21,909 nucleotides of DNA from Elusimicrobiota bacterium (GTDB taxonomy: Bacteria > Elusimicrobiota > Elusimicrobia > F11), in NCBI GenBank assembly GCA_046153645.1, contig JBJXGI010000048.1, forward strand, positions 1 through 21,909, written 5' to 3'. The first letter of the stretch is position 1. Every line of letters starts with the position of its first letter. The position numbers and the translations under genes were made by a program. Below the pieces are notes generated by a model. It had not been told where the DNA came from and searched no databases. It saw nothing but the letters and a program-made list of their open reading frames with translations. Positions 251-20,963 of the stretch are shown one piece after another.

Positions 251-3200
251 TTACGCATTTGTACTTCCAACCACTGCAATATCAACAATAAAATCCAAAT
301 CAGTAATTCTTAAAGGTAAAGATTGCCGCAATTCATCAATTAAACTCATCCTTCCTCGAAAATTATTGAAAACAGGATTCGCAGATATATAACCTTTAGG
401 GCCGTTAAACAATTGGCAGGGAATCTCGAGGTGATAACCCATCTCTTCATTACTGAGTTGTGAAAGCCCTTCAGCCAAAGGAACCACATTTAAAACTCTT
501 CCTTTAACATGATGAGAATAAAGAGAATTATTGGATTGAACGAGGTGAATTCTGTTTTTATATTTTTTATTGATGCCATCAAATATTTTTTGGGCGTCTT
601 TATCTTTATCACCTATGATCAGAACCAGTTTTTCATTAGGAAATTCCACGAGGAAATGTTCAATAAAATTTTTATCCTCAAATGACACTGGTAAAATTCG
701 CCCTGATGGTGTCAATTTGGGAATCGAAATATCAACCGGATGAACTAAAAAGGCCAATAATGACTTTTGTAAATCATAAGAGTCCAAATGTCCTATTCCC
801 CTTGACTGCGACAATCTGGCGATGGCTTGTTCTAAAATAAAGCGATCACTTTTATTTTCAACGTTTAAATAACCGCGGTCCATACTTCCCACGCCGAGAG
901 ACTGTTCTTTTTTTAAAATTAAATTGATCGCCTTTAAATCCAACTCATTGTTATTAGATTTATCAATAAACTTGACCAACAGAGATGAAACTTCATTAAT
1001 TTTAATTTGAATGTCCAGATCAATGATCCCAGATGACTTTCCTGAAAGATTCATTTGATCAATACCCTTTTTAATGTATTCAAAATTATCTTTAAAAGTT
1101 AAAGGCGAATAAAATACTTCCGATGCCCGTGCCGCAGAAAAAGGAAAAGACAACAAAATAAAAACGATAAAAATTTTCCAGAATCTTTTTAAAAAAATGA
1201 GACTCGTTACGAACAGGACAATCGATAAAACCAGAATTGACTTATTAGAAGTTAAAAAAGAAGAACGAAGAATCATAAAAGATCCAAAACCAACGCTCAT
1301 GAAGAAAAAGGTTTTTTTCCACATTTTTTTATCTTGATGAGGTACGGGGGGTATTGTGTTTACATTTTGTTCTAACTGTGGTGATGCTTGAATATTGTCA
1401 ACAGGATCCTCATCCTGATCATCAACTGAATCTTGATAATCGACCGTTTCAACTTCTAAATTATAATTTTCAACCTTTTCTTCTCCTGCCAATGATCCAT
1501 CAGGATGAAGGCGCCAGGATCGCTCATAAAGAAGAGGTCGAGCCAAAGGATTTTTTGAATCTATTGATTTTCCATAACCTCGTTCTGAAAAGGGATGCAT
1601 ATGAGACTCGATCAATGCGCTCTTTAATTCGTCGATCGAATACCCCTTAAACTCATCGCGCCAAAAAGAAGGAGCTCCCATAATTGGCAATTTATAGACA
1701 GTTTCAACTGACTCAATACCGAGATTATCAGAAGGATAAGTAATAAAAGTCACAAATCCCACGACTTGATTAAGTTCCATGGTTGGGTTAAACATCATTT
1801 GGTTTGTTTCAACTATCCAACCATCACGACCCAACAAATCAGAACCGCCATAGTAAATTTCTTCCAGCCCTTTATCCAATGCATCTATTTTTCTTACTGA
1901 TCTATTCAACACTCTTCGAAAAAATGAGTGATCATTAGTGCGCGCTTCTATATTGCCGACAAAAGAGGGAGAGGTATCTCGGTTTATTAATTCATAAGGA
2001 CTAAATTTCTCGCCATCAATATCTTGAGGAGAGTAAACATGAAATTGAACTATACCTTGAACTGGTTCGAAAATTCGAACAATCGCTAACAAATCTTGCT
2101 CACTGTTAGGGGTTCGTCTAGGCCAAATGAATAACCGGTACATTTCACCATGAACATTTGAAGATTCGAATCGCCCGACAATGGAACTCTTTTTTCTTTC
2201 AACTCTCGCCACTATCCTTCCCGATTTGTCTTTTTCAACTCGAAATGAAACTTTTGATATTTCTCCTGTCCTAAAATCCATCCTGGTTACTGTAACTCTC
2301 CGCACGAGTCCAGCGTATGGATTATTAGGCCCATGGTATTGAAACTGAACATGTTTTTCATAACCCTCTGGAAAATTTAAATAAATAATTTTTTCAATTC
2401 GAGATGCCTCGCCTGGAACGGTCTTAGCAACGACTTTTACACCAAATGGATATTGATGGTTAGCTGTCTGCGAATCATTATTTTCATGGGCAGTACCTGC
2501 ACCTGGTTCTTTTAATGCTTCAGAGACAGGAGATAATGCCGAAACGGGAAAAAGATCTGGAGAAAAATTATATTTGTATTTTCTTTTGGGCAATAAATCC
2601 AAAAGCTGAAGATAAATATAATACCCAAGAAAAGAAATAATAAAGGCGATTATAGCTTTAAACAAAAAATCAACTGACCCAACAGGAATTTTTAAAGCGT
2701 AAACGATCCAAAACACGATCGCCGAAAAAATTGAGAGCATTAAACCCCGCGCAAAAATTTCTGTACCATTTTTCTGAAGAAGTTCCCAATGACCTTTTGA
2801 CTTTTCGTTGTCTGGCAATTTATTCTGCAGTTGCGGTTGCTCCAGAACTTTTTTTTGATTTTCAATTTTTTCTTTTACTAATGGAAAAATGACATTGAGC
2901 CAAAAAAGATAGAAAAATATTCCCGTCAAATAGGGCGCAGATTTTTTAATGAATTCAAGAAAACCATCAAGAAAAACAGCGACCTCTTCATCGACTCTGA
3001 TGCTCAATTGAGAAGTTGAGACTTCTTGTTGTGAAGGAATCGGAGGTTCAACCATGAAAACTTCAAAAGGAGCAAGTACTTCAATACGAGGAACCAATTC
3101 TAAATGTAAGCGCGGCAACTGAATCTCCGGTATTTTTAAAGAAGAGAGAATTTTTTGAAGACGGGACATAAAGTCAATCAATTTCAGAAATAACTCAACG

Positions 3201-6200
3201 GTGACACGATCATTCGATGAGGGAAGGCTATACAGAAAAAAACCTCCCCCAGGATTTACCCTTACAATCTTCCCATCGACAAGCGGAAGCGGGACAATCC
3301 CACCAGCACCAAGCTTAGAACTGTCACCAATATTCCCGCTCTTATATGTAGATGCACCCCCTAAATCTACATCAGAAAAAGTCCTGTCGAAACTACCACT
3401 AAATGGTTTTATTTCAATCGCAAGTCGAAATACATCAATGGGTTCACCTCGTTTGTTAAAAATAAACGTTTGGATTTCAATGGGGACTCGGGCTTCAGGG
3501 TTTAAAACCCCTGAGTTTAGGTAAGTGCGAATTTCAGTTGGGGAAAAATTTTTCTCAATCAATTCATAAGGCCTAATAAGATTCCCATTGATCAAACGAG
3601 GTCGAAAAATAAGTTCTCGAATGAGCACTTCGTTACCTGAGCGGTCGTTATCCCTATAAGAAATCTGAATTAACTCAATAACTTCATCACCTTGAGCATT
3701 TCTTATCTCAAGAAAAGTAGGGCGACCCAGTTGATCACGACCAGAAAACAATCCTTTAATTTCAATATCTTTTCCGTTTTCAAACCGATGTCCGTCAAAA
3801 CCAATAAGTTGCCCGTTTATGTATTTGTAATAGATGATTTCATGAAATATTTTTTCACCTGATTTGGCAAAAAGAGTGGTTACTTTTGAAAAAAGTTGTT
3901 GAAAAGAATCATATACGAATTGGACTCTGGTTGTTAACTTGGTGTTCGGATCATTAAAACTGTAACCGTACAAAAAGCCTCTATTTCTATCTATTGATCC
4001 CCTGGTTTCTCTCGGACTTGTCGGGATCGGCGAGATGGATATGACTTCCGGAATCCGGAGATCTTGATCTGGAGAAAGAACAGCAAAATCATCATCCGAA
4101 AGACCAAACGTTCCTTTATTGACCAGATACATATTCCCCTTCGCATCCACCGCAAGCGCTGAAGCGCGGGTAATCCGGCCGGGCAACTTCATCGGTTCAC
4201 CTACTTCTTTTGGATGAGTCGGATCTTGAAGATTTAATTCATGAATAAACCCATCTGCCGTTAGAACAAACAGAGTCCCTTGGTCTTGATGACGATCTGA
4301 AAGTCCCGGCGCATAAAGAATATCAGTGGGGTTTGTTATTCCCAAACTGGATAAACTCACTCGATTAAGTTCAATAAGATCTGATAAACCATAAATGATT
4401 TTAAATTTAAATACCTGCGCCTCTGGATTATTAAGAGAAGGTTCCGTTACCACATAAAACACATTTTCATCACCAGAATAAGTCACCCCCACAGGGTTTC
4501 CAGATATGGGGTAGGTTTGAGCAGGGTTAAGTGGCACCGTAATATTATTTTTGCCTTTGGGAATATCCAAAAGAGTTAAGGTAGCACTTGCACCTTTTTC
4601 TTTGGTCACAATTGCTATTCGGTCACTTCCGTTATTCTCTCCCATGAAAATAATACCTTCTGGGTTTGTTAAGCCAAAAATATTAATGATTCGAATTAAT
4701 ATCCCATCTGGGTTGATTTCATAAATGACGTTGGTTTGCCCATCGGTTGCATATAAAGTCCCACGTCCTGTGGATGTAATACTTGAAAGGCTACCAATGC
4801 TATTTTTAAAGGGAAGATTCAAACCTAATTGTTGCGTATAGGTCACCCCAGACAACTCTCCTCTAAACTGCTCCCCGGGGATCGGCGCTCCTACGGGAGT
4901 TTGAGGAATTTGTAGCGGTCGATCGGGACGGTATACCGTAAATCCGTCGTCACCCAATCCAAAGGTGCCTTTATTCGATAGGTATAGATTTCCCGCTTCA
5001 TCTATCGCCACGCCCGCTGGTTTTGTTACTCGAGTCGGCAATGTCATCTCTCCCACCAATTTCGGATTCGCCGGATCCAAGAGATTTAATTCCCAGATCG
5101 ATTGATCTGCGGCTCGGACCACGTAGAGCCTCTGATGGTCTCGGTTATCCGCAGAAAGCCCCGGCGCATAAAGAATGTCGGCTGGGTCACTGATCCCCAA
5201 ACTTGATAAATTCACTCGCGTTAGAACCAACGCCGGTCGAACCCCGTCGATTATTTTTATCTTCAATACCTGCGCATCTGGATTATTAACAGAGGGTTCT
5301 GTTACGATATAGAAAACATCTTCTGTTTTTGAATACGCTACTCCCACGGGGTTTCCAGGAACCGTATATAGGGATGTCAAAGAAACGGTTATATCCTCTA
5401 CTCCCATTGGAATGTTCACCATCACCAACGTCGCTTCCACTCCCTTTTCTTTGGTCACAATCGCTATTCGATCTGCTCCATTTTGACTGCCCATTACCAC
5501 AATCCCTTGTGGGTTCACAAGTCCCGGAATCGTTATCACGCGTCTCAATGTCCCATCTCTATTTAGTTCCAGCACACGCCCTGTCTGACCGTCGGTGGCA
5601 TACAATGTTCCTCGCGTCGTTGCCGCCAATCCAGATACACTGGCTGTATAGGGATAATCATTTACTTCTGTGAATAGGCCTCCTATTTTGACCCCGATAG
5701 GATTCCCAGTAATTCCTTTAACTTGAGTTGTGTCCAACGATATCGTAGTAGAGCCCGTCCCTCTCGGGATCTCTATCCGCGCTAACTTTGCTGGTACAGC
5801 GGGTACTGCTCCGTTGGCTGCTTGTCCTTTTATCACCACACTGATAAATTCCACTCCATTTATTTCGCTGATCCCCACCACTCCTTGCGCATCAACCAGA
5901 CCATTCACCTGAATCGTCCGAATGACTCCTCCGCTCGCATCCAATTCAAGAATCCTTTCTCCGTCCATCGCATACACCGTCCCTCTCGACGTTGTCACTT
6001 TCCCTGGAACTGTTCGAATCTCAACCGGGAAATCGGTTCCTATCACTTGGCTATACCCCACCCCAGACAACTCTCCTCTAAACTGCTCCCCGGGGATCGG
6101 CGCTCCTACCGCAGGTTGAGGAATAGCTAAGTTTCGATCGGGTGACAAAACTGAAAAATCATCATCGGTAAGCCCTAATGTCCCTTTATTTACGAGATAA

Positions 6201-9200
6201 ATATTTCCTCTCGTATCAACTGCCAGTCCGGAAGCACGGGTGATCCGACTTGGTAATTTCATAGGCTGCCCTATTTCTTTTAGGTTATTGAGGTCTTGAA
6301 GATTCAATTCATGGATAAACCCATCCGAAGTGAGGATAAAGAGTGTTTGTTGATCTTGATTATTACTGGAAAGTCCCGGTGCATAAAGAATGTCTGCTGG
6401 GTTGACAATGCCCAATTGAGCTAAATTTACTTGATTAAGTTGTAACAGGCGAGGTGCCCCGGGAACAACTTTTAGTTTAATCACCCGCGCATCTGGATTG
6501 TTCCGAGACGGTTCAGTCACGACATAAAATACGTCTTCATCGATAGAATAAGTAATCCCAACCGGATTTCCTGAAACTCCATAGGTCTGCCCAGGATTTA
6601 CGGAAACAATAATATTTTCATTTCCTAAAGGAATATCAATAATCGTTAAAAGGGCACTTACTCCCTTTTCTTTTGTGACAATGGCAACTCGGTCTATTCC
6701 ATTTTCACTTCCCATCACCACAATCCCTTGTGGATCAATTAAGCCAGGAATATGAATGGTTCGAATAAGCGTGCCATCTGGATTCATTTCATAAAGAACA
6801 TTGGTTTGGCCATCGGTGGCATATAACGTTCCTCTTCCTGTTGTGGCCACACTGGAAAGATTACCGATAATAGATTTAAATAGTAAGTCACCACCTAGTT
6901 TTTGTGTGTAATGGATGCCGGAGAGAACACCTGAAAAAAACCGCACCTGAACAGGGAGTTCTTGAGTTTCATCTGTTTGTTCAATTCCATCAGAATCAGT
7001 CGAAATAATTTTTAACTTTAATTGGTGAACCCCTACACCATTCAAAGTTAAAGTGGGAGGCGGAATTGTTCCTCGATATATTTCGATATTGTTATCGGTC
7101 CAAACATAAAGAGCATTTTCACCTGCGGGAATAAAAGTACCGTCATAATTATTAATCGTGACCACCGCTCTTCCATTCACATTGGCTTCAACAAAAGAAG
7201 GAATAGAAACCCTGGCAATAGGCGGAGGGTTACTGGCTAAATCTTTAACCCGGACTATAGTAACCGCTTCGTTAGAACCGCCATTTCCCCGAACTGAAAG
7301 TCGAACAGATGTTTCGCCTATTGGAAAATTAAAAGGTGCTTTTAAACTAACTCCAGGCTCTCCAATGCCTTGATCAACAAGTTGCCCCCCCACATAAATT
7401 GACCACTCTAATAAAGCCCCATAAGGATCATAAGTGTTGTTTGTATTCAGTGAAACAGGTTCAACACGATTATCGTCTCGATCCAAAGCCACATAGGGAC
7501 CACCTAAATTAGCTACCGGAGGTGTCAAAGGAATAATGGGATCTGGCGCAAAAACATTAAAATCATTTTCCTGAACGCCTCCGCCCACTGTTTTGCCTAA
7601 AATATACATTCGACCATCAATGCCAAATGTAAGAGCAGAAGGGTCGGGAATCCCTCTGTCAGCCAGAGAAAATTCACTAAAAACGATTGGGGCAAGGCCA
7701 GGGTTGATTTCTTTCACAGATAAATTTGTGAGAACGAATAGGTGCGGTGACAAAAGAGGGAAATAAGCAACGGCTTTCACTCTTTCACCAAGTTGCATGA
7801 GGGCACTGATATCAATTTCAGCTAATTTCTCGGAAATAAGAGAATTGGAGTTAAGTTTTATCTCAAATATTTTTTGTTTGGTTCCATCACTCACATAATA
7901 AAAAGTGTTCTTGGATGAAATATAAGTAAGCCCAACAGGATCCCCTTCCAATGAATAAACTATAGCGTCCGAGCGCGAAATAGATACTGATTCGGAACCT
8001 GGAGGAATTTTGAAAACAGCCAATTCTTTCCCTTGATTGAGAACCACCGCATAAGTATCGCCATACATCCAAATAATATCTTCGGGATCGGCTCGAGTAA
8101 TAAGAGGATCATTTCTCTTAAGTCCCGAAACATTAATTTCACGCAATAAATTACCATTGGTATCAATTTGTAAAATTTTATCAGCCCGACTTTCAGTTAT
8201 AAAAAATGTGTTATTGATTCGATTATTTGTCAGACCAGAGTATTTTCCAAAGTTGGAAGTCTGTGTAAAGGGGAAATCTTTCCCAATTTCTTGATTAAAA
8301 ATATGCCCAGCCAATGTATTTTCGGGAGAATTTAATAATAGGTGAGTACTCGATTCAACAGTGGGAACAGAAGGAAAAAGATTTAGTTGCGAAACCAAGG
8401 CCACATTTTCAATGCCTAAATGAACCATCTGAGGAAGTCCCGTAACGGCAGGAGAACCTGACAGAGCAGTGCGAACTTCCAATTCAACAACATTTAAAGG
8501 TGGAAGTAGATTTTTCGGAAACGTAATTGCTGATATTTTTTTCTTAAGAAGTTTGAACCACTTCCCAATAGTATTAAAACCAAAATAGCTTGATGTAACG
8601 GGCTGTGGAGTAGGCGTTACAATAATGTCTTCCAGATACAGACTATGGCCCAAATCGAATTCAGGAAACTTTCGGTTTGCAAATTCGACTGGTGACAAAC
8701 CAGTACCAGAACCATCTACTATTATTTCTTTAACACTCTCACTTCTAAACTTTTTTAAAAAAAGTATAAACCAATCATAAAGGGTTTTTTTCTCGGCTAC
8801 CGAGCTTTCCATCGACTTAATTTTTGGAGCAGGTTCTCCCAAATTAAGAGGCTTTATATTATTTTTTCGTTTTACCGCTCTCTCTAGCTGAACTTCAGCG
8901 ATAATGCCCTCACCAGAATTCGCTTGAAGAATACTTTTAAGTAAAAGTAATTGTGATTCTGGTTCCTTTTTAAATTGAGCACGGGCCTTTTCAACTATTT
9001 TAGACAAGAAAGCCACCAATCCAAGCCCTTGAGAAGGATTGGGCGCGAGAAAGAGTTTTTCTCCCATCACTAATTTCTCAAGTGGCGTTTTTTCTTGTGT
9101 GAAGACACTTAAATAATCATGCCCAGTCATATCGTTAACTTTTGTTATTTTTGGAACAAATGAAACAGTAGAAATACCCGCTTGTGCTAAGCGCGCCTTA

Positions 9201-10654
9201 ATAGCAGTCGCGTGGAATCCCCCCACCACAAAAACACCGATACCCGAAGACTGTGTTTGATTGATTTTCTTGAGATAGTTTTCAACCATCACATTATCTC
9301 GTTTTCGCGCGGTCGAATAAAAAGATTCAAATGAATTCAAATGTTCACAAACAGAAAGGATGCTCAATTTTTTAAGATGAAGATAATCATCCCACTCATC
9401 AGATGAAAGAGAAAAAGTCAAAAGTTTTTTTCCGTAACGAATGAGTTTTAACTGGTTTATTATTTTCTCATCCTTGGGAGAGCGGCTTAAATGGAGATAA
9501 ATTCTTTCTTCAATTGATTTAATTTCTTTAAAGATAACTTCCCCATCAATAGCATCAGATAAATTAATGTACTCAATATATTCTGTTAAAGCGGGATATT
9601 GATCCATCCGAACACCCTGACGTGAAACAACATGAGAAAGAGTGGAATAAAAATCTTGAATTCGAATCATTGACATTCGATAAGCCCATGCTTTTTCAAC
9701 TAAAGATTGCGTTTCAACAGGAGTTAGTTTTGAAGACAAAATATTAATTAATGAAGCTCGTTCTTGTTCCACACGCTTAAAATTAATTGATTTTTCCAAT
9801 TGAACCGCCCGCAGAAATAACTTTAATGGAGAAGAGAGTCCCTTATACTGAGAAAGCTTATTAAGGTAAGTTTCCAATTGAACTTTTTTCTGGTCGTATT
9901 CTCGGACCAACGAATCAAATGCAACCAATTCTGGACTTAAGGTATTCTGAGCTATTTGCATCGTTTCTATTTCTTGCTTCAAAAGATGGGCTTGATTCGA
10001 ATGAACAAAAGACTCTGAAGCACGGTAGGCATTAATATTTTCTAAATAAAGATCGGGCTCTTCAACACCAAAAATAAGAGGAGGAGTCGAGACATTAATT
10101 AAAGAAGAGTGAACAGCACCAGAAATTTTATTTGTTTCTAGCAGAAAATGGGCGACACTCTCAAGAGTATCAGGAAGTATATTGTTTCTATAAGATTCCA
10201 ATTGAATTGTACCGGATAAACCTTCCATGGCAACGTAATCCAATTTCTGTTTTCTATAAAGATGAGTTAACAAAGCCGAAATATTAGATTGTGCTTCTTG
10301 ATTCATATGAATATCATGAACAAGAATGACCATTTTTTTCGGATTGATTTTGAGAGGCGCAACAGCTCTTATTGAACCCAAACGAGCAGGTAAATTGTTA
10401 ATAATGTCTAGGGTCGAATTTTTATTCTTTGAAGACTTAGATTCAAAAGGATTCAAAAAAATACTGGATTGAACTCGATCAGAAAGACGCACATCTGCAG
10501 AAGTGGGAAGTTGAGGAAGAAGAGAGACCAATTGCGTTGACTTTTGTCTCTCTTTCCAAATACTTGTTTCATATGAATGTGCAAAAAAGCTATTCGTTGT
10601 TAGAATAGAAACACAAATCATCCACGAAATAGTTTTTTTAAAATGGAGACGCAT
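251..10654 (-). CDS. Giant 3467-aa multidomain exported/membrane protein: conserved N-terminal domain, SdiA-regulated/YjiK-like beta-propeller repeats, PKD/Ig-like domains, TM segments
   Basis: Uninterrupted 10.4-kb ORF with an N-terminal basic+hydrophobic leader. aa 108-537 are colinear with the neighbouring 1618-aa ORF. Repeats such as SGLT...ILQIDTNGNLLREINVSG...DPEDI and GTLYATDGQT...NPDG.LIR.I.I.GL..P.GI are present, as are several hydrophobic stretches near the C-terminus. Confidence 0.9.
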   Translation of the reverse strand: MRLHFKKTISWMICVSILTTNSFFAHSYETSIWKERQKSTQLVSLLPQLPTSADVRLSDRVQSSIFLNPFESKSSKNKNSTLDIINNLPARLGSIRAVAPLKINPKKMVILVHDIHMNQEAQSNISALLTHLYRKQKLDYVAMEGLSGTIQLESYRNNILPDTLESVAHFLLETNKISGAVHSSLINVSTPPLIFGVEEPDLYLENINAYRASESFVHSNQAHLLKQEIETMQIAQNTLSPELVAFDSLVREYDQKKVQLETYLNKLSQYKGLSSPLKLFLRAVQLEKSINFKRVEQERASLINILSSKLTPVETQSLVEKAWAYRMSMIRIQDFYSTLSHVVSRQGVRMDQYPALTEYIEYINLSDAIDGEVIFKEIKSIEERIYLHLSRSPKDEKIINQLKLIRYGKKLLTFSLSSDEWDDYLHLKKLSILSVCEHLNSFESFYSTARKRDNVMVENYLKKINQTQSSGIGVFVVGGFHATAIKARLAQAGISTVSFVPKITKVNDMTGHDYLSVFTQEKTPLEKLVMGEKLFLAPNPSQGLGLVAFLSKIVEKARAQFKKEPESQLLLLKSILQANSGEGIIAEVQLERAVKRKNNIKPLNLGEPAPKIKSMESSVAEKKTLYDWFILFLKKFRSESVKEIIVDGSGTGLSPVEFANRKFPEFDLGHSLYLEDIIVTPTPQPVTSSYFGFNTIGKWFKLLKKKISAITFPKNLLPPLNVVELEVRTALSGSPAVTGLPQMVHLGIENVALVSQLNLFPSVPTVESSTHLLLNSPENTLAGHIFNQEIGKDFPFTQTSNFGKYSGLTNNRINNTFFITESRADKILQIDTNGNLLREINVSGLKRNDPLITRADPEDIIWMYGDTYAVVLNQGKELAVFKIPPGSESVSISRSDAIVYSLEGDPVGLTYISSKNTFYYVSDGTKQKIFEIKLNSNSLISEKLAEIDISALMQLGERVKAVAYFPLLSPHLFVLTNLSVKEINPGLAPIVFSEFSLADRGIPDPSALTFGIDGRMYILGKTVGGGVQENDFNVFAPDPIIPLTPPVANLGGPYVALDRDDNRVEPVSLNTNNTYDPYGALLEWSIYVGGQLVDQGIGEPGVSLKAPFNFPIGETSVRLSVRGNGGSNEAVTIVRVKDLASNPPPIARVSIPSFVEANVNGRAVVTINNYDGTFIPAGENALYVWTDNNIEIYRGTIPPPTLTLNGVGVHQLKLKIISTDSDGIEQTDETQELPVQVRFFSGVLSGIHYTQKLGGDLLFKSIIGNLSSVATTGRGTLYATDGQTNVLYEMNPDGTLIRTIHIPGLIDPQGIVVMGSENGIDRVAIVTKEKGVSALLTIIDIPLGNENIIVSVNPGQTYGVSGNPVGITYSIDEDVFYVVTEPSRNNPDARVIKLKVVPGAPRLLQLNQVNLAQLGIVNPADILYAPGLSSNNQDQQTLFILTSDGFIHELNLQDLNNLKEIGQPMKLPSRITRASGLAVDTRGNIYLVNKGTLGLTDDDFSVLSPDRNLAIPQPAVGAPIPGEQFRGELSGVGYSQVIGTDFPVEIRTVPGKVTTSRGTVYAMDGERILELDASGGVIRTIQVNGLVDAQGVVGISEINGVEFISVVIKGQAANGAVPAVPAKLARIEIPRGTGSTTISLDTTQVKGITGNPIGVKIGGLFTEVNDYPYTASVSGLAATTRGTLYATDGQTGRVLELNRDGTLRRVITIPGLVNPQGIVVMGSQNGADRIAIVTKEKGVEATLVMVNIPMGVEDITVSLTSLYTVPGNPVGVAYSKTEDVFYIVTEPSVNNPDAQVLKIKIIDGVRPALVLTRVNLSSLGISDPADILYAPGLSADNRDHQRLYVVRAADQSIWELNLLDPANPKLVGEMTLPTRVTKPAGVAIDEAGNLYLSNKGTFGLGDDGFTVYRPDRPLQIPQTPVGAPIPGEQFRGELSGVTYTQQLGLNLPFKNSIGSLSSITSTGRGTLYATDGQTNVIYEINPDGILIRIINIFGLTNPEGIIFMGENNGSDRIAIVTKEKGASATLTLLDIPKGKNNITVPLNPAQTYPISGNPVGVTYSGDENVFYVVTEPSLNNPEAQVFKFKIIYGLSDLIELNRVSLSSLGITNPTDILYAPGLSDRHQDQGTLFVLTADGFIHELNLQDPTHPKEVGEPMKLPGRITRASALAVDAKGNMYLVNKGTFGLSDDDFAVLSPDQDLRIPEVISISPIPTSPRETRGSIDRNRGFLYGYSFNDPNTKLTTRVQFVYDSFQQLFSKVTTLFAKSGEKIFHEIIYYKYINGQLIGFDGHRFENGKDIEIKGLFSGRDQLGRPTFLEIRNAQGDEVIELIQISYRDNDRSGNEVLIRELIFRPRLINGNLIRPYELIEKNFSPTEIRTYLNSGVLNPEARVPIEIQTFIFNKRGEPIDVFRLAIEIKPFSGSFDRTFSDVDLGGASTYKSGNIGDSSKLGAGGIVPLPLVDGKIVRVNPGGGFFLYSLPSSNDRVTVELFLKLIDFMSRLQKILSSLKIPEIQLPRLHLELVPRIEVLAPFEVFMVEPPIPSQQEVSTSQLSIRVDEEVAVFLDGFLEFIKKSAPYLTGIFFYLFWLNVIFPLVKEKIENQKKVLEQPQLQNKLPDNEKSKGHWELLQKNGTEIFARGLMLSIFSAIVFWIVYALKIPVGSVDFLFKAIIAFIISFLGYYIYLQLLDLLPKRKYKYNFSPDLFPVSALSPVSEALKEPGAGTAHENNDSQTANHQYPFGVKVVAKTVPGEASRIEKIIYLNFPEGYEKHVQFQYHGPNNPYAGLVRRVTVTRMDFRTGEISKVSFRVEKDKSGRIVARVERKKSSIVGRFESSNVHGEMYRLFIWPRRTPNSEQDLLAIVRIFEPVQGIVQFHVYSPQDIDGEKFSPYELINRDTSPSFVGNIEARTNDHSFFRRVLNRSVRKIDALDKGLEEIYYGGSDLLGRDGWIVETNQMMFNPTMELNQVVGFVTFITYPSDNLGIESVETVYKLPIMGAPSFWRDEFKGYSIDELKSALIESHMHPFSERGYGKSIDSKNPLARPLLYERSWRLHPDGSLAGEEKVENYNLEVETVDYQDSVDDQDEDPVDNIQASPQLEQNVNTIPPVPHQDKKMWKKTFFFMSVGFGSFMILRSSFLTSNKSILVLSIVLFVTSLIFLKRFWKIFIVFILLSFPFSAARASEVFYSPLTFKDNFEYIKKGIDQMNLSGKSSGIIDLDIQIKINEVSSLLVKFIDKSNNNELDLKAINLILKKEQSLGVGSMDRGYLNVENKSDRFILEQAIARLSQSRGIGHLDSYDLQKSLLAFLVHPVDISIPKLTPSGRILPVSFEDKNFIEHFLVEFPNEKLVLIIGDKDKDAQKIFDGINKKYKNRIHLVQSNNSLYSHHVKGRVLNVVPLAEGLSQLSNEEMGYHLEIPCQLFNGPKGYISANPVFNNFRGRMSLIDELRQSLPLRITDLDFIVDIAVVGSTNA
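4844..4894. repeat. 51-bp perfect direct repeat, copy 1 (encodes VGAPIPGEQFRGELSGV)
   Basis: caccccagacaactctcctctaaactgctccccggggatcggcgctcctac, identical to 6059-6109. Confidence 0.9.
6059..6109. repeat. 51-bp perfect direct repeat, copy 2
   Basis: Identical to 4844-4894. Confidence 0.9.
6950..7525 (-). other. Two PKD/Ig-like domains within the giant protein
   Basis: PPVANLGGPY...VSLNTNNTYDPYG.L.EW...FPIGETSVRLSV and PPIARVSIP...YVWTDN...GVGVHQLKLKI follow the PKD-type pattern (PVA.AG, SxDPDG, YxW, GxHxVxLxV). Confidence 0.6.
7530..8310 (-). other. Divergent SdiA-regulated/YjiK-like beta-propeller domain within the giant protein
   Basis: YSGLTNNRINNTFFITE...ILQIDTNGNLLREINVSG...DPEDIIWMYGDTYAVV...DPSALTFGIDGRMYIL resembles the YjiK/SdiA-regulated family pattern. 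Confidence 0.65.
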
Positions 10655-10745: not shown

Positions 10746-13700
10746 TTAAGCACTTTGGTGAACCCGCTTCATATGGTTTAAACGCCCTCTTAGAACATTT
10801 AAAAACGTTTTAATTGCTTCAAATTGCTCATTTAATGCGATCAATTGCCCTAACTGGAGGTTTGGGGCACCACTCCAATCCACAGGTAGGCCTTCTCTTT
10901 TGACCAGGACAATCTGATGATCTTCATACCCTTGTTTTTTAAGAATTGTCTCAATAGCACCCATAACCAATGTTGTTTCACCCGATTTTGAGGTTGATAA
11001 CGGAACGGTATCGAAAATGATGCCGCCCGGTGAAGTAAACCACCATTGAATATTTTTGTTAAGATTTTCTTCCTTGAGAACAACAAGAACGGGGGTTTTC
11101 CCGGCCAATTTTGTAACCCGAAAAAGATTTTTAAGAGAGGAAATATCTTCAGTGGGATCTAACTTCTTATCAACCACAACCACAAAAACTTTTTTCTCAG
11201 TCAAAGACTCAATATCCTGGTTTAGGGGCATGGAATGCCAAATTGGTGGCATCAATTGAGGAGGCTGAAAATAACGTTTGCCTGGGGGTTTTCGAAAATG
11301 AAAAGCCACCCGGCGAAGAAAATTCAGCGCAGCGATGACAGTGTAATCTCTTCGATCATGAATACTGTTGTTTAATTCTTTTCCCAAACGGTCAACCTCT
11401 TCAGAAATCAACCAGAAATTGGGATTGGGAAACAATGAAAGCATATAAAGAATCAAATCTCCTGGACTGGAGCGGGCACCACGTTTATCACGTGACCAGG
11501 TATGAAATTTAACAGAATGCCAACCTGCCTTATCGTCATTTTTATTGCCTCTCCAAATGGGAAACCGACGCCGAATGCGCTTCCACGCTTCTAGAAACGC
11601 GTTGAGGCCAGGACCATTGCGATCAACATTTTCAATAACATGATGCTTATCTTCTTTACCGCGGTTCCAAACAAAGCCAGCACCCGCCGATTGAAGGAGA
11701 TGCTGTATATCAGACTCAGGAGTATCCATTCGCGAAAGGTAAGGCTCAACATCCAACGGAAAACGAATAATAAAAACACCCCGTGTTTTTCCGGATTCCT
11801 TTAATAACTTCTCGTCCTGGTTTGGAACACGCTGAACATAAGCCTGCCCCGTGGCTTCTCCAACGATTTGATGCGCGATAGAAAGACCAAATCCACTTGA
11901 ATCTCCTCCACTCACATTGGAGAGCCAAAGTGAATCGGCTTCATCGGGATCATCAGAAAGAAGCGTTGATTTAAATCCTTCACCGTCATCTTCAACGGTA
12001 ATGACACACTCAAGACCAACCCTTTCTATCGTTACCTTCACTTTTGTATTGACCCGAGCTCCATGTTTCTGCGCGTTTCGAAACAAATTGTCGAAGACGC
12101 GTAACAAATGGTCATAGTCGCCAATAATAATAGAGGAACCCTCGACTGGCGGAACAATCGTGATTTCTGGAAATCCCCCTAAAAACCGCGCTTTGGCAAA
12201 ATGAATCAACTCAACAATATCAACCGGTTCTGGAACGCCACGGTATGTGCCGTTGAAAATAAATTTTTCTATTGATGCCGCCATGCTCTGACAAAAACGG
12301 AAATTTACCTGAGCCATGTCAAGACTCTCTTTCAACTTGGCCATGTCGTCTATAGGAAAATTTCCTTCTTTTATTGACTCTTCATACCACGCGTAAAGAG
12401 CCGCAATTTGCTTGGAAATATCAGGGTTCTGTAACGCTTCATTTACTTGAATTAATCCATCAGCCATCCTCCCGGCTACGAGCGGAAAATTTGGATGTTT
12501 TTTCTTTACCGCATTCTGAAGGTGGGAAGGAATGCTAAACGCCCTTTCGGCGGCTTGTCGCATTCTGTCAAAATGATCGTTAAGCGCACTTGCGATACTC
12601 ACAATTTCTAGCGGCGCATTAAAATCCTCAAGAATATAAATAATCAATTCGGCCTTAGACAAACACACAGCAATAGGTGTTTTTATGTCATGTTCCATCT
12701 GTTTTCGGTAACGCACTTGACGCACCATTCGATCAGGACTTAAAAGAGCACGAATGAAGTGAAGAAGTTTCTGTTCAGAAGAAAAAACCTTTGGATGCGC
12801 GTGCACACGCATCGGCTCAGAAGGGAATTGCTGTTCAAAAGAATTTTGATGGCCTTTCAATTCGCGGTTTACAATTGTGTCAATATAGGTTTCCCGAGAT
12901 TCAGTTGGGATTGCCAACAATCCTTGTAGCAAAATTCTGTGCACATAAAAAACCGCGGTTCCACCCTCATTGGTGAAAAAAGGAGCCAAGATAAATAAAT
13001 CGGGAGTTGAGATAAGAGATTGCCCGCCAAAAATTTTAACCTCAACATCGGTAAGACCAGAAAGTGGTTTTTCCTTTAACTGAGTTCTAAATGCCTCTTG
13101 AATCTCCTCAACCAATAACTCCAAATCCGCTGTCGTGGTTTTTCCGGTTTTTTTGAGAAGGCCGCTTTTCAGAAGAACTTCCAGTAAAACTATTGGAGTA
13201 ACCCAATCCCACTTGGCTACACTCGTTGAGATATAGGCATTTATTTTTTTCTCATTAATCTTATCTTTAATCTTTCCTTTCAAATTCACAAAAAAAGTTT
13301 TCACTCGTTTCTTTATTTTTCTGGTGAAAGAGTCTCCCAATTGGTACTTAAGCTCTTTTAAAACCGATTTTTTCCTATAAGCAGAAGACTTAAACACCAA
13401 GATAATAAGATCATGGATAGAACCATAATGTAATGCGCCTACCAGCGTCATCCGAGAAAGCCCTGTGGCATTCCAAAGCCGATGAATGGCAGCAGTTAGT
13501 AAAATATCACCGGAAAAAACTGCACCAACATTAAAAAGAATCGTCGCTATAACTCTCTCTATTGTTTCCCTGCGCGTTTGACTGGCATGCCTTTTAATAT
13601 AAGCAATCTGGGCTCGAATAACGATGAGACTGAGCATCGCGATAGCAAAAACAGAAAATGCCATTACAAAAATGGAAAAACTTTCATGCCATTTAACCAG

Positions 13701-15602
13701 ACTCGAAATGGCCGCCGCGATAATAATAGCGGGAACTCGACCTTGCATGAACGAATCCCACCATCCACGACCTTTGGATTTCCATCCAATTTCCTCAGCC
13801 AAAGCATGAAGCCATTCAAGCGGCGCAAAAAACAAACGAACCTTACCAATGGCTCGATCCACTGTAAAAGTGACAACAATGACGGCAAAGCCAATCCCCA
13901 CAAACACCTGCTTCCCAAAATGAAACGTCCATACAGAACGCTTTTGCCTCGTTGTCGGAAGCAGGCGGTTAAATATTTGAGCTGCACCATTCATCCCATT
14001 TTTCGCTTCTATCGCCGTGGCTAAGGAAGGAGCTTTTCCATTGGCAACCACTTCGGAAAACGGCGCCCCCGCTAAAAACAAGCGATCACCTTCAAACAAA
14101 CGGTCAAGAGGTGCTTTCTCTTGGCAAAAGGCACTCAAGTAGGCGGTGCCATTTTCAGTTTCGACTTTCGTTATTTTTGGAACATAAGTAATAGTCGTTA
14201 CTCCAGCCTCCGCCAAGCGCCGATTAATTCCATCAGAGTGGAAACCACCAGTGACAAGAATAACCGTTGATTGTTGGCCCTCAATGAGCCTTAATACATT
14301 ACTTGCCATGGCAACATCACGCGCTTCGGCTTTTCTGTAAAAATCTTCAAACGATGACAAATTGAAACCCTGACTTATTGACAATGTTTTATCTATTTCT
14401 ATTTTGTATTTTGCCCACTCTTGACTGGTTAATGAAAAATCTAATAATTTTCCAATCAAATACAATTGTTCGTTTTCTTGAGCGAGCTGACGTTCTTCCT
14501 TATTTTTAATGAGCGCTGTATAAGCCCGCGCTTGTACACTTTCAATTTCGTCAAAAATTTCTCCAGCATCAACCAATCCAACCAAACCGACATATCGAAA
14601 ATAATCTCGCAGCACAGGGCTCATTTTTTGATTCGCACCTGTTCTCTCAGCTATTTTTTGGACATGGGCATAAAAATTCGCGATGGATAGCTCACCACGA
14701 GAATACGCAACATTCATGGTCATAAACCGCTTGTTTTCTACGGAATCTAACGCTGTAAGCAAACGTACAAAAAAAACATCGCGTTCTTTTTGTACCGCTG
14801 AAAAATCGAGAGTACGTTCTAATTCAATCGCCTCTTTAAACCGTTCCAGTGGGAGAGAATGAGACTTTGTGAAAACCAACAAAAGCGAAACAAAATCGCC
14901 TAATTTCAATTCATTACGGCGATAAGCTTGAACTTTTTGATCTAATTCAAGAAGTTTCGAATTAAAAACAATCAATTTTCGTTTTAAATTTTCATTAAAT
15001 TTCCGCGAGAGATTTTTCTTAATATCTGCGCTCAATAAAATAGAACGACGGTAAGCCTCTATATTAGCTTCATAATTTTTTTCATCATCCACGCCAACAA
15101 CAGGTGGTGTGGGATGAGAATGAGTCAATGCCGCATGAATAGGACCGGAAATATCGTTTATGTTAAGTAGATAATCAGCCATAGAACGTATCGTTTCCGG
15201 GCGCAAGAATTTTTTAAACCGTGAAAGATCGATTTCGTGAAAAGCGCCTTCTAGAGCAATAGCACTGATTCTTTGATGACGAATCATTTCTTGAATGGCG
15301 GCGGCAATATTTTTTTGCGCTTCAAGATTTCGGTGAATGTCTTGAATATGAATGACAACAGGCGCAGACGTGTTTGTTTCTAGGTATTTACTCTTTTTCA
15401 TTCTGACAAAAGCGGAGGATAAAAGTTCAGGATCGACAATCGAGCGAACTGGTGGCAATAAGGGAAGAGCTTGCCTGGTTTGTATTAACTCTCGACGTTC
15501 TTCCCACACGCTGGCCTGTGATAAAGATAGAAATGCCGTGTCATTAATAAAAACATTAACAACCAAAATAGCAGCAACAAATTTTCGAAAATAAAAATAC
15601 AT
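10746..15602 (-). CDS. 1618-aa multidomain protein: conserved N-terminal domain, TM/CPBP-like module, HisKA + HATPase_c histidine kinase
   Basis: Signal-like leader, and aa 82-511 are paralogous to the 3467-aa ORF. Kinase boxes: H-box EHDIKTPI, N-box LLRVFDNLFRNAQKH, G1 VEDDGEGF, G2 SGFGLSIAHQIV. Confidence 0.88.
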   Translation of the reverse strand: MYFYFRKFVAAILVVNVFINDTAFLSLSQASVWEERRELIQTRQALPLLPPVRSIVDPELLSSAFVRMKKSKYLETNTSAPVVIHIQDIHRNLEAQKNIAAAIQEMIRHQRISAIALEGAFHEIDLSRFKKFLRPETIRSMADYLLNINDISGPIHAALTHSHPTPPVVGVDDEKNYEANIEAYRRSILLSADIKKNLSRKFNENLKRKLIVFNSKLLELDQKVQAYRRNELKLGDFVSLLLVFTKSHSLPLERFKEAIELERTLDFSAVQKERDVFFVRLLTALDSVENKRFMTMNVAYSRGELSIANFYAHVQKIAERTGANQKMSPVLRDYFRYVGLVGLVDAGEIFDEIESVQARAYTALIKNKEERQLAQENEQLYLIGKLLDFSLTSQEWAKYKIEIDKTLSISQGFNLSSFEDFYRKAEARDVAMASNVLRLIEGQQSTVILVTGGFHSDGINRRLAEAGVTTITYVPKITKVETENGTAYLSAFCQEKAPLDRLFEGDRLFLAGAPFSEVVANGKAPSLATAIEAKNGMNGAAQIFNRLLPTTRQKRSVWTFHFGKQVFVGIGFAVIVVTFTVDRAIGKVRLFFAPLEWLHALAEEIGWKSKGRGWWDSFMQGRVPAIIIAAAISSLVKWHESFSIFVMAFSVFAIAMLSLIVIRAQIAYIKRHASQTRRETIERVIATILFNVGAVFSGDILLTAAIHRLWNATGLSRMTLVGALHYGSIHDLIILVFKSSAYRKKSVLKELKYQLGDSFTRKIKKRVKTFFVNLKGKIKDKINEKKINAYISTSVAKWDWVTPIVLLEVLLKSGLLKKTGKTTTADLELLVEEIQEAFRTQLKEKPLSGLTDVEVKIFGGQSLISTPDLFILAPFFTNEGGTAVFYVHRILLQGLLAIPTESRETYIDTIVNRELKGHQNSFEQQFPSEPMRVHAHPKVFSSEQKLLHFIRALLSPDRMVRQVRYRKQMEHDIKTPIAVCLSKAELIIYILEDFNAPLEIVSIASALNDHFDRMRQAAERAFSIPSHLQNAVKKKHPNFPLVAGRMADGLIQVNEALQNPDISKQIAALYAWYEESIKEGNFPIDDMAKLKESLDMAQVNFRFCQSMAASIEKFIFNGTYRGVPEPVDIVELIHFAKARFLGGFPEITIVPPVEGSSIIIGDYDHLLRVFDNLFRNAQKHGARVNTKVKVTIERVGLECVITVEDDGEGFKSTLLSDDPDEADSLWLSNVSGGDSSGFGLSIAHQIVGEATGQAYVQRVPNQDEKLLKESGKTRGVFIIRFPLDVEPYLSRMDTPESDIQHLLQSAGAGFVWNRGKEDKHHVIENVDRNGPGLNAFLEAWKRIRRRFPIWRGNKNDDKAGWHSVKFHTWSRDKRGARSSPGDLILYMLSLFPNPNFWLISEEVDRLGKELNNSIHDRRDYTVIAALNFLRRVAFHFRKPPGKRYFQPPQLMPPIWHSMPLNQDIESLTEKKVFVVVVDKKLDPTEDISSLKNLFRVTKLAGKTPVLVVLKEENLNKNIQWWFTSPGGIIFDTVPLSTSKSGETTLVMGAIETILKKQGYEDHQIVLVKREGLPVDWSGAPNLQLGQLIALNEQFEAIKTFLNVLRGRLNHMKRVHQSA

Positions 15603-15712: not shown

Positions 15713-16543
15713 TTAAAACCGACCGCGAAGCCGTTCTTTTCCAGGCAGGATTTCCAGACAGGTGGTCCACCACCCCGTGGTGATGGTATCAATAAATTCT
15801 TGAGGAAGTTTTTCGTCTCGCATTTCTTGAGCTAAAACTGACCAATCATAATCAACCTTTAAAAGTTCAATCTGAGGCACATTATTTAATATTGAAATCT
15901 CAGAGTACCAAACATTTTGGTTTCCATCGTTGGCAGGGCGCCCAATAGCACCAATATTAACAACCCATTTTCGAGGTGCTACTTCGCGCTTCCAGGGAAT
16001 GCCGGTATGAGTGCAGCATAAAATATCGCATTCAAGTTCATCCATCATTCTCAGTAAAAATGCATTAGACGTAGTCGTGTCCCATAAAAACTCATTTATC
16101 CTTCTGGGAGAACCATGACACAAATGAACGACGAAAGACCCTAAGTGAAACTGAACTTGTTTTGGAAAATTTTTTAGTAGAGAACGATTTTCATCAGAAA
16201 TATTTTTATCTGTATAATCATAAGACATCGCCGCATAATAATTATCTTTGGGGTGAGAATAACCACAACCACAATCAGCCGCTTGAGTAATTAATGATTC
16301 TTCATAATTACCTTGAATACATTGAACGTTAAACTGTTTTAAAATTGGAAATACTTCATTGGGATAAGGGCCAAACCCTCCCAAATCTCCCAATTGAAAA
16401 ATTTTTTCCATTCCATGATGAGTGGCCATTTCGCACGCTTTTTGAAGGGCCACATGATTATTATAAACCCCACCCAAAAGACCCACTTTCTGATAAGTGG
16501 TATTGAGCTTTTCAATGGAGGGGGCACAGCCTACGTACGACAC
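15713..16543 (-). CDS. Atypical metallophosphoesterase (calcineurin-like) family protein
   Basis: Motifs LGDLGGFGP, IQGNYE, CHGSP, CTHTG and VNIGAIG. The start is uncertain: the ORF track gives 16573, which overlaps the radical SAM gene by 43 nt, and the in-frame GTG at 16543 gives a smaller overlap. Confidence 0.82.
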   Translation of the reverse strand: MSYVGCAPSIEKLNTTYQKVGLLGGVYNNHVALQKACEMATHHGMEKIFQLGDLGGFGPYPNEVFPILKQFNVQCIQGNYEESLITQAADCGCGYSHPKDNYYAAMSYDYTDKNISDENRSLLKNFPKQVQFHLGSFVVHLCHGSPRRINEFLWDTTTSNAFLLRMMDELECDILCCTHTGIPWKREVAPRKWVVNIGAIGRPANDGNQNVWYSEISILNNVPQIELLKVDYDWSVLAQEMRDEKLPQEFIDTITTGWWTTCLEILPGKERLRGRF

Positions 16544-17439
16544 GTCACACCAAATGCGTGGCAGGTATAACAAGCACCACGATCAAGCTCAAAAGAAACC
16601 AATGATTCTGTTATCGTATTTCCCATTCGAGCCAAAGGGTCATTGATAAGAATAGGACACACCCACACCCCTTCATGAGTAACAATGCGAGAAGAAGTGC
16701 ATTGCAGTTTTAATAATTCATCTTCAGATAAATGAAGCCCTTGAAGCGTTTCGTTTTTTTTATACCCACAAGAACGGGATTCTTCTTCACCAATATGAAA
16801 TAAACTGAGAATCTTCATTCGAGGTTGTTTAAGACCCAAGGATTGCATGAGTTCAAAAAATTTTTCACGCCCTTTTTTCCCTTCTTTGGAAAGTTCTGGG
16901 GAGGCTTCAGTTACCGTAATAACAGGGTTTAAACCCGCATGAGCGAGATTTTGAATCCCTTTTAGGATCCGTTCAAAGGTTCCTTCTCCTCTAATAGGGT
17001 CATTGGTTTCTTTGGTGGTGCCATCTAAACTAATTCGAAGTTCTAAAGCATAATGACTTGAATCACTTAAAACTTTTAGTTTTTGCGCTAAGGCTTCATT
17101 AAGAAAGGTACCATTGGTTAAAACATTAGCAGGGCCTATTTTAAGAGTCTCCGTCAAAATCGCCAACATATCCCGATTCATGAAGGGTTCCCCGCCCGTA
17201 AAGTAAAATTCTTTTACTCCGAGCTTTTCGGCCTCAAGCAAATGCTGTTTAACTTCTTCTAAACTCATCATTTGGTGATTATTATTGGTGGGATTGGCGC
17301 TTACCAAACAATGCTCGCACCACAAATTACAAATGGTACCCGCTACTTGAAACCAAAGAGTTTCAATGTAATAAAGAGGCGCTGAGGGAAAAACTTCTTT
17401 TTTATTTATAGAGTTCTCTGAAATAATTGTAGATGACAT
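16531..17439 (-). CDS. Radical SAM protein (related to the ArsS-type arsenosugar-cluster radical SAM enzymes)
   Basis: CNLWCEHC (CxxxCxxC), FTGGEPF, LTNG, ISLDG...D.IRGEGTF. Extra C-terminal cysteines are present (CTSSR, VCP, CYTC...C). Confidence 0.9.
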   Translation of the reverse strand: MSSTIISENSINKKEVFPSAPLYYIETLWFQVAGTICNLWCEHCLVSANPTNNNHQMMSLEEVKQHLLEAEKLGVKEFYFTGGEPFMNRDMLAILTETLKIGPANVLTNGTFLNEALAQKLKVLSDSSHYALELRISLDGTTKETNDPIRGEGTFERILKGIQNLAHAGLNPVITVTEASPELSKEGKKGREKFFELMQSLGLKQPRMKILSLFHIGEEESRSCGYKKNETLQGLHLSEDELLKLQCTSSRIVTHEGVWVCPILINDPLARMGNTITESLVSFELDRGACYTCHAFGVTCRT

Positions 17440-17498
17440 AATTAATAAGAAAGAATTATGCCATTTTTAAGGCGGAAAGAAGATAAAACAGTTCTTGA

Positions 17499-17547
17499 TT
17501 GACAGAAATAACATTGGGAATGTATACTCATTGTATAAACAAAGGAG
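17499..17547 (+). promoter_or_regulatory. mazEF sigma70 promoter, overlapping palindromic operator, and RBS
   Basis: TTGACA 17499-17504, 18-bp spacer, TATACT 17523-17528. Inverted repeat TATAC-tcatt-GTATA overlaps the -10. AAGGAG at 17542-17547 precedes ATG 17555. Confidence 0.75.
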
Positions 17548-17554
17548 TCATCAG

Positions 17555-17797
17555 ATGAAAACACGTGTAAAAAAATGGGGCAATAGTCTTGGGCTAAGAA
17601 TTCCAAAATTATTCGCAACCGAGTCTCATATTGAAAACAATACAATTGTTGAAATGTTTGTTTCAGAGGGGAAAATTATTATTTCTCCTATTAAAAAACC
17701 GGCCATTCAACTTAATGACTTACTTTCGAAAATCAATAAAAAAAATATTCATCATGAAATAAAAACAGGGCCTGCTACAGGGCAAGAAATCTGGTAA
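17555..17797 (+). CDS. mazE: AbrB/MazE family antitoxin (80 aa)
   Basis: MKTRVKKWGNSLGLRIP...L.DLL..I...N.H.EI.TG...GQEIW is the MazE signature. Start reassigned to ATG 17555 based on the RBS and promoter. Confidence 0.93.
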   Translation: MKTRVKKWGNSLGLRIPKLFATESHIENNTIVEMFVSEGKIIISPIKKPAIQLNDLLSKINKKNIHHEIKTGPATGQEIW

Positions 17798-17801
17798 AAA
17801 C

Positions 17802-18143
17802 ATGCCTTACATTCCAGAAAGAGGAGACGCCGTTTGGCTCGAATTTAATCCACAAACCGGCCACGAACAAGCTGGGCACCGACCGGCTTTTGTCATCTCT
17901 CCATCGCATTATAATCGAAAAGTGGGTTTAGCTCTTTTTTGCCCAATTACTTCTCAAGTAAAAGGATATCCCTTTGAGGTTTTGATTCCACAAGGACTAA
18001 AATTAACCGGTGCCATTCTTTCAGATCAAATAAAGAGTTTTAACTGGAAAGCACGTAAAGTTAAATTTATTTGCACCTTACCAGCCGCAACCACAAGAGA
18101 TGTCATCTTAAGACTTGAAGTGCTCATTAAAAATCACATCTAA
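17802..18143 (+). CDS. mazF: MazF/PemK family endoribonuclease toxin
   Basis: YIPERGDAVWLEFNPQTGHEQAGHRPAFVISP..YN...CPITSQVKGYPFEV...DQIKS is the canonical MazF pattern. Starts 4 nt after mazE. Confidence 0.95.
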   Translation: MPYIPERGDAVWLEFNPQTGHEQAGHRPAFVISPSHYNRKVGLALFCPITSQVKGYPFEVLIPQGLKLTGAILSDQIKSFNWKARKVKFICTLPAATTRDVILRLEVLIKNHI

Positions 18144-19395: not shown

Positions 19396-19454
19396 ATATT
19401 ACCTGGCAAAGTGAAAAAGTCAAGACAAAACCGCAGCAGATGGTGAAAAAGTCA
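19396..19454 (-). promoter_or_regulatory. Putative leaderless promoter of the ATPase, with 12-bp direct repeats
   Basis: Minus strand: TTGACT (19423-19418), 16 bp, TAATAT (19401-19396), 6 nt, ATG, with no SD. GTGAAAAAGTCA (plus strand) occurs at 19411-19422 and 19443-19454. Confidence 0.5.
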
Positions 19455-20615: not shown

Positions 20616-20624
20616 GAACTGAAA

Positions 20625-20951: not shown

Positions 20952-20963
20952 TCATTTCTCCTT

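Follow-up and report, generated by a model that had tools for sequence, protein, structure and literature searches.

A Tiki/EreA/ChaN-superfamily head domain of giant proteins in Elusimicrobiota: a candidate for their maturation enzyme

Autoprocessing polyprotein leaders, such as the CPD of MARTX toxins and the MPTase of polyvalent proteins, combine a constant protease module with variable cargo, which is also the layout of the proteins described here; the folds differ, however, and here the module comes with a Sec-type signal, membrane segments, an Ala-ended tail, and a form that would act in trans. Closer in fold is RRSP, the Ras/Rap1 endopeptidase of MARTX toxins and a TIKI family member, which according to PMC6254334 requires E3900, H3902, E3930, R4001, and H4030, is metal-independent, and cuts a peptide bond. 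The erythromycin esterase EreC, with the residues E47, H50, E78, R261, and H289, is likewise termed metal-independent in PMC7979712.

For the giant proteins of Omnitrophota, the main text of 10.1101/2023.11.21.568195 describes N-terminal C39 and S8 peptidases, proteases lying beside the signal peptide that are proposed to process the chain; their fold is unrelated to that of the head domain studied here. The same text finds most N-terminal regions of giant proteins to be without identifiable domains, points out glycolytic domains predicted to be extracellular, and states as an open question whether, by what, and where the giants are cut, the missing cleavage points having blocked analysis. The word Tiki is absent from that main text, and the accessible part of 10.64898/2026.06.07.730766 mentions neither Tiki nor cleavage. 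In a comparison that also spanned the accessible parts of PMC12419801, 10.1101/765248, PMC12057145, and PMC6411480, and whose scope was main texts, leaving aside most subscription journals and all supplements with their possible domain tables, we found no paper assigning a Tiki/EreA/ChaN fold to these giant proteins.

The flagged gene and the fold of its head domain

The window, that is, the whole stretch of 21,909 nucleotides analysed, contains the 3467-aa giant open reading frame P0001 (251..10654, minus strand), which comprises a signal peptide, a Tiki-like head, beta-propeller repeats, late membrane segments, and an Ala-ended tail. The stretch 9044-10333 (minus strand) that an earlier note had flagged corresponds to residues 108-537 of P0001 and lies within the head as we modelled it (residues 82-546; 9017..10411, minus strand). 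The signal-peptide-like leader (residues 1-25; 10580..10654, minus strand) was read from the sequence in a comparison of 45 paralog starts and is followed by the W-x-x-R motif of the head family (10547-10558, minus strand). The next gene upstream, P0002 (10746..15602, minus strand; 1618 aa), is a paralog with a signal peptide, a head (14043..15437, minus strand), membrane segments, histidine-kinase-like cargo with a HATPase_c domain (11754..12122, minus strand; E 4e-12), and an Ala-ended tail. The two heads share 34% identity across 432 columns (E 2e-78). A tandem TTACA..TTTAC element of the family precedes P0002 (15603..15712, minus strand), and a looser copy precedes P0001 (10655-10745).

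We modelled residues 82-546 of P0001 with AlphaFold2 from a 92-row alignment. The model (mean pLDDT 90, pTM 0.87) has an alpha/beta core broken by about 230 helical residues (200-430; 9365..10057, minus strand, by DSSP of the model), which divide the two halves of the catalytic core. The helical-looking stretch of about 250 residues noticed earlier was confirmed by this, as G196 and R452 are 256 residues apart and model residues 119-349 are all helix. The five best matches among 48,161 PDB chains, ChaN (Z 9.4), HopBA1 (8.7), 2QGM (8.5), EreC (8.4), and BcR135 (8.3), aligned over 161-187 residues with an rmsd of 3.7-5.5 and all belong to one superfamily; PMT ranked eighth (Z 6.9), the first unrelated chain scored Z 7.7, and a second search gave the same order. 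A Z of 8-9 is moderate, barely above the 7-8 usual for unrelated models. Foldseek returned no match to the head model below E 0.001 (EreC, E 0.096, probability 0.54), and RRSP was absent among the structural matches listed in the fold searches of the head. In a structure search of the Atlas with a stand-alone relative, its own family was followed by clusters with members of DUF5694, PF04187, and PF01963 at TM 0.26-0.31.

Sequence profiles gave a consistent but fainter picture. Of 62 members, 34 matched PF04187 weakly, at best with E 4.6e-7, while neither PF01963 (Tiki/TraB) nor PF05139 (erythromycin esterase) matched any of the 62 at E 0.05. The curated ChaN cut-off was missed, P0002 scoring 23.5 versus 27.7 bits (at residues 359-457, E 6e-5) and P0001 showing no match. 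Protein and profile searches of PDB sequences yielded nothing significant, and NCBIfam held no model for the head. The head is a member of the Tiki/EreA/ChaN superfamily, as the earlier note had proposed and as the model and structural ranking bear out, and it forms an uncatalogued family that by Pfam cut-offs lies outside ChaN, Ere, and TraB.

The putative catalytic residues agree with this assignment. All the motifs described earlier were found in both paralogs in the order given: HDIHMNQEAQSNI in P0001 and QDIHRNLEAQKNI in P0002, and then AMEG/ALEG, GVEE/GVDD, RDNVMVEN/RDVAMASN, and VVGGFH/VTGGFH. In P0001, D114-x-H116 (10307..10315, minus strand) is the counterpart of RRSP E3900-x-H3902 and EreC E47/H50; E144 (10223..10225, minus strand) lies 28 residues after H116, as E3930 and E78 do in RRSP and EreC; R452 (9299..9301, minus strand) corresponds to R4001 and R261; and H481 of GGFH (9212..9214, minus strand) follows at +29, as against +29 for H4030 and +28 for H289. 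The His-to-Glu (28) and Arg-to-His (29) distances of P0001 are therefore those of RRSP, the first acid being Asp instead of Glu. The P0002 set is D88, H90, E118, R428, and H455. Only 14 columns are invariant among the 42 complete paralogs of this genome, whose mean pairwise identity is 32%, and five of them are D114, H116, E144, R452, and H481; since these positions are kept in 42 of 42 diverged paralogs, the motif agreement is not due to chance. The D/H/E/R/H set was present in all 211 ungapped proteins from searches with the fused form, some of them from this same genome (17 gapped or partial rows were set aside), and H/E/R/H in all 101 from the stand-alone search (one gapped row set aside), with Asp in 98. 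The proposed retention of the catalytic set thus held, with invariance across paralogs and RRSP-type spacing. The modelled positions, at the strand ends 27-33, 57-62, and 391-397 and on helix 359-385, would be compatible with a single pocket.

The head nevertheless differs from each described relative. The erythromycin esterases (EreC, 6XCQ/6XCS; BcR135/136, 2RAD, 3B55, and 2QGM; PF05139) share its core fold (Z 8.2-8.5), its residue order (E47/H50/E78/R261/H289 against D114/H116/E144/R452/H481), and a helical lobe inserted in the core, but identity to the EreC family is only 9-12%, the Glu-to-Arg distance is 308 residues in P0001 as opposed to 183, there is no PF05139 match, and the head, an exported domain, comes with giant cargo, either joined to it in one chain or paired with it. 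RRSP, with its acid-x-His, Glu at +28, Arg, and His at +29, is an effector that is delivered, and its Glu and Arg are 71 residues apart, whereas the P0001 domain is an invariant N-terminal head. ChaN (Cofac_haem_bdg, PF04187, PDB 2G5G), the best structural match (Z 9.4, rmsd 5.5, 186 residues aligned), is without the helical lobe and binds haem. The suggested metallo character of the peptidase found no support, since RRSP and EreC, sharing this residue set, are reported to be metal-independent and only Tiki to be metal-dependent.

With ChaN as top match and its Pfam family as the only recurring superfamily match, the head might instead be without catalytic activity and serve, as ChaN or PMT C2 do, as a receptor, chaperone, or ligand-binding domain, binding the tag described below or a metal and escorting cargo. 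We regard this as very unlikely, as PMT is inactive and without the 2His/2Glu set, whereas the head family keeps all five residues in more than 300 proteins.

The remainder of the window is described here for completeness. The P0001 cargo consists of repeated beta-propellers (SdiA-regulated, four stretches; 3995..8287, limits approximate, minus strand), with DNA repeats 2070 nt apart. Residues ~3130-3195 (~1060-1270, minus strand), just before the tail, contain hydrophobic segments and an A-x-A site (...FSAARA-SEVF) and look like an internal signal peptide, judging by sequence; a similar segment occurs near the end of C15:11816-18859. A mazEF toxin-antitoxin pair (17495-18143, plus strand) runs opposite in direction to its flanking genes, and a 47-nt repeat at 18128 and 19457 surrounds an AAA-type ORF. 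The minus-strand genes at 15713-17439 and 19452-21725 encode a radical SAM protein, an FAD oxidoreductase, an arsenosugar-associated peroxidase-like protein, a PstB-like ATPase, and a protein that we take, by its motifs, to be metallophosphoesterase-like; the group is possibly an arsenic or phosphonate cluster. The window gave no Rfam match.

The head family in this genome and its relatives

The earlier note had recognised two paralogs; the shared domain it saw is real, but the family turned out to comprise about 45 copies in this genome and thousands elsewhere. Forty-eight ORFs carry the head, 42 of them complete, together making up 12% of the assembly, and about 45 giant proteins start with it. 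Their common layout is a signal peptide, the head, unrelated cargo, and a shared tail ending in Ala; in the 45 starts compared, the signal-like leader is usually followed by W-x-x-R. A hydrophobic or membrane segment occurs no more than 260 residues after the head in 39 of 42 paralogs, P0001 being an exception in which beta-propellers come first. The cargo is mostly unrelated from paralog to paralog, and Pfam matches were obtained in 13 of the 40 cargo pieces scanned: sigma-70, SNF2 and other helicases, dynein-related AAA, methyltransferases, cNMP-binding, phosphoesterase, and Rce1-like and M50-like membrane proteases. Cysteine is scarce in family proteins (0.18%, versus 0.72% in other ORFs). 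Two upstream DNA patterns were commoner in the 39 family promoters (15 and 22 of them) than in 590 controls (1 and 11), counts that are flattered because the patterns were derived from the same sequences.

The tail is as regular as the head. Ala is the last residue in 30 of 32 complete family members, as against 75 of the 968 remaining ORFs; among relatives, 36 of 38 proteins end in it (2 of 40 stretches, having no stop, were left out). An iterated tail profile matched 136 of 177 tails and none of 177 shuffles. It also picked up 12 of the 968 ORFs outside the family, ten of which resemble headless fragments or continuations of family genes and two of which are false; a first profile, seeded from relatives, recruited no tails of this genome. 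The P0001 tail, an alpha/beta domain at 254..778 (minus strand), matched at E 1.5e-8 as a member of the profile. That of P0002 (10749..11228, minus strand; AlphaFold2 pLDDT 76) is a Rossmann-like alpha/beta domain with a 28-residue terminal helix ending in Ala, and its fold gave generic Rossmann-like matches only (best Z 7.0).

Several observations concern single copies. L065 (57-157 aa), L098 (72-368 aa), and the C19, C20, and C71 paralogs have, after the head, a membrane module similar to intramembrane proteases (Rce1-like, M50), which may possibly provide a second processing step. A 6624-aa ORF (G000:C87:10610-30481) has a family-like leader without a head domain, and its end overlaps in sequence with the Ala-tail-bearing C62:245-6274; it is possibly a headless cargo of this genome. 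G000:C23:17491-20204 and G023:C37:1803-3238 are family copies broken across several ORFs by stops or frameshifts. A search for a dedicated SecA paralog gave a single SecA match in this genome, and in another Elusimicrobiota genome a SecA_DEAD-like piece lies within a 9030-aa ORF (G060:C1:1754411-1755058), as has been reported for giants of Omnitrophota. No RNA data set was listed as containing the sequence, and the four DNA runs that share it come from a single study, with identical pieces and nothing independent.

We then determined the distribution of the head. The genome is assigned to Elusimicrobiota because close matches with names bear that label and because G023, a genome listed under this phylum, encodes a protein labelled in the same way. 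At E 0.001 it matched 6164 representatives at 50% identity. All 11 genomes of the same family contain it, with 18-49 matches each, and in a sample of the phylum it occurs patchily, in 71 of 201 genomes: one family has it in 45 of 60 and another in 0 of 61. Omnitrophota account for most of the nearest Atlas clusters, and neither 50,697 phage records nor viral contigs contained a relative. A short head match in a contig labelled as a Methanolobus MAG (L001) is perhaps mis-binned DNA.

Stand-alone heads and tagged cargo

In three genomes (G023, G024, and G028), the head occurs in one to three copies only, G023 also carrying one split copy; the five copies read consist of a signal peptide and the domain, with no cargo. 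A search with a stand-alone query returned 103 proteins, mostly of 480-560 aa, and nine of the 11 labelled with an organism are from Omnitrophota. The roughly 100 stand-alone relatives have a signal-like start and span 476-699 aa, typically about 510 residues, and an alignment of the fused profile with the stand-alone one covers 444 columns at a probability of 100. In metagenome loci (the best 80 of 438 confirmed), 68 of the 74 3'-complete heads stand alone, at less than 700 aa.

The genes following these heads were scored for a hydrophobic leader and then L-[RK]-[PQ]-x(1-2)-[AS], using the 56 distinct heads whose loci extend far enough downstream. Leader and tag were both present in the following gene at 28 of these 56, compared with 15 of 988 control ORFs of this genome, although the locus counts overstate independence because the loci are related genomes. 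The tagged neighbours are headless, are exported by predicted signal, and have the L-R-P/Q tag right behind the signal peptide. The 28 misses include one followed by a second head and several near-miss tags, and in five the next gene is presumably glmS-like, by its motif. Of 55 long ORFs that lack a head and begin with a hydrophobic stretch, 42 carry a looser tag. Among four tagged representatives and seven other neighbours scanned, the tagged ones include the multi-enzyme fusions FBA-GPI-PFK-PPDK, TIM-FBPase, and PGK-TIM. In G023, which has stand-alone heads only, five of 24 LRPPA-type codon matches fall in long ORFs, four of the five directly behind a signal peptide, while in G017, where the head is absent, none of 17 falls in a long ORF. 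The bare genome-wide count is not enriched (24 in G023 versus 22 in the reversed control), so only the in-frame position is informative. One G028 match, which we take to be a glycosyltransferase motif, was left uncounted. At five loci (L214, L251, L203, L236, and L225), stand-alone heads belong to an operon that recurs: GH94 phosphorylase, ROK, and PilZ genes lie close by, and signal-tagged glycolytic enzyme fusions follow downstream.

The stand-alone layout points to the cargo, and not to a foreign protein, as the partner of the head, the tag marking where. It thereby bears on the idea of an RRSP-like effector protease whose target would be a host, prey, or competitor protein. RRSP and HopBA1, effectors of the same fold, are precedents for this idea, which would also suit the link of sister-phylum giant proteins to predation drawn in the main text of 10.1101/2023.11.21.568195. 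Yet the head is constant and the cargo variable, stand-alone copies lead operons of metabolic cargo, and no adjacent immunity-type gene is evident within the window, so that we consider this the least probable of the readings, and a highly improbable one.

Some fused heads end in the same tag. In the metagenome loci, four of nine (three distinct) run straight into L-R-P/Q/S and a fifth into L-A-P. The heads of this lineage end in a conserved G-E-K-L-F-L-[AS]-x-x-P, and their junction is only loosely tag-like: 19 of 42 match by a loose pattern, and the residue after the junction L is most commonly A (91 of 178), not R. In P0001, the conserved junction segment T523-P540 (TPLEKL..GEKLF-L-A-P-N-P; 9035..9088, minus strand) contains, near L536, a candidate cis processing site, where model pLDDT is 55-66. 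A complex prediction that paired a stand-alone head (P0232 residues 78-545, from a 101-row alignment) with the first 45 residues of its neighbour, tag included, scored 0.00 and carries no weight here. A different junction, R-S-E-x-R, was rejected, as it occurred 0 times in 81,182 cargo residues of this genome and once in 231,370 from 137 relatives.

No internal cleavage motif is repeated in the 81,182 cargo residues of this genome, which leaves the earlier suggestion that the head might cleave the polyprotein unsupported as far as a cut into domains is concerned. The same null result weighs on another reading, in which the head is a cargo peptidase cutting elsewhere, at internal junctions, a signal-peptide remnant, or the Ala-ended tail, with the tag being read by another protein. 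The tail is indeed as universal as the head, with its final Ala in this genome and in relatives, and the predicted signal-peptidase site of several cargos coincides with the start of the tag, which would then be exposed with no further cut; the membrane segment that follows most heads, on the other hand, may separate head from tail. We rate a cut elsewhere as distinctly unlikely.

Proposed maturation role

What was computed, namely, the fold, the intact residue set, the architecture, the two genetic layouts, and the tag enrichment, led us to propose that the head is a dedicated maturation peptidase of large exported cargo, acting at the junction in cis or in trans; on sequence and models, we give this an even chance. 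From the signal peptide we infer export of the cargo by Sec. An active hydrolase of the Tiki/EreA/ChaN superfamily would then recognise a short junction where the cargo begins. For headless cargo this would be L-[RK]-[PQ]-x-[AS]-[AT], and for the fused cargo of this lineage probably L-[AS]-x-x-P. The enzyme would most likely cleave there, freeing or exposing the cargo N-terminus. Catalysis, the peptide nature of the substrate, the cut site, and the action in cis all belong to this conditional part. In some lineages, one to three stand-alone heads would act in trans, and in this one a copy fused to each cargo (about 45) would act in cis. A trans-acting enzyme needs just one good copy, so 42 undecayed copies argue for action on the own chain; the conservation of five residues in all of them at a mean identity of 32% suggests that each copy acts on the chain that carries it. 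The autoprocessing surmised earlier is in this way supported indirectly, by invariance in every copy and by the stand-alone heads beside tagged cargo.

The composition of the superfamily, which also includes esterases (EreC) and non-catalytic members (ChaN, PMT C2), counts by analogy against a peptidase. The head could accordingly be an active hydrolase or acyl-transferase of a non-peptide bond, in an ester, a lipid anchor, or an envelope polymer, that aids the passage or anchoring of tagged cargo: among full-length structural matches that have a helical second lobe, the esterases EreC and BcR135/136 come closest, and operon coupling would suit any accessory enzyme. A small-molecule or polymer hydrolase, however, needs no intact copy on each of 42 chains, and the tag directly behind fused heads would be left unexplained; we view this alternative as unlikely, if somewhat less so than the others. 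The maturation peptidase remains our preferred reading. Since an intact-looking domain heads about 45 giants and in relatives forms a separate gene beside short-tagged proteins, we regard the head as a good, if unproven, candidate for their maturation enzyme.

More tentatively, and less likely than not, the head could be the maturation protease of an undescribed export pathway of Elusimicrobiota and Omnitrophota, in which a second, signal-peptidase-like step would read the L-R-P-type tag behind the Sec signal and commit giants with cytoplasm-type enzymes (sigma factors, helicases, kinases, and glycolytic fusions) and an Ala-ended tail to the outside of the producer's cytoplasm, lineages switching between a few trans copies and one cis copy per cargo. 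Any new specific Tiki-fold protease would in addition be a possible tool. With the stand-alone form of about 510 residues and the six-residue tag, the question comes down to a small assay of one enzyme and a peptide, and the head family, with 6164 clusters, 12% of one genome, and no curated model, provides a concrete candidate for the cleavage of giant proteins in uncultured phyla.
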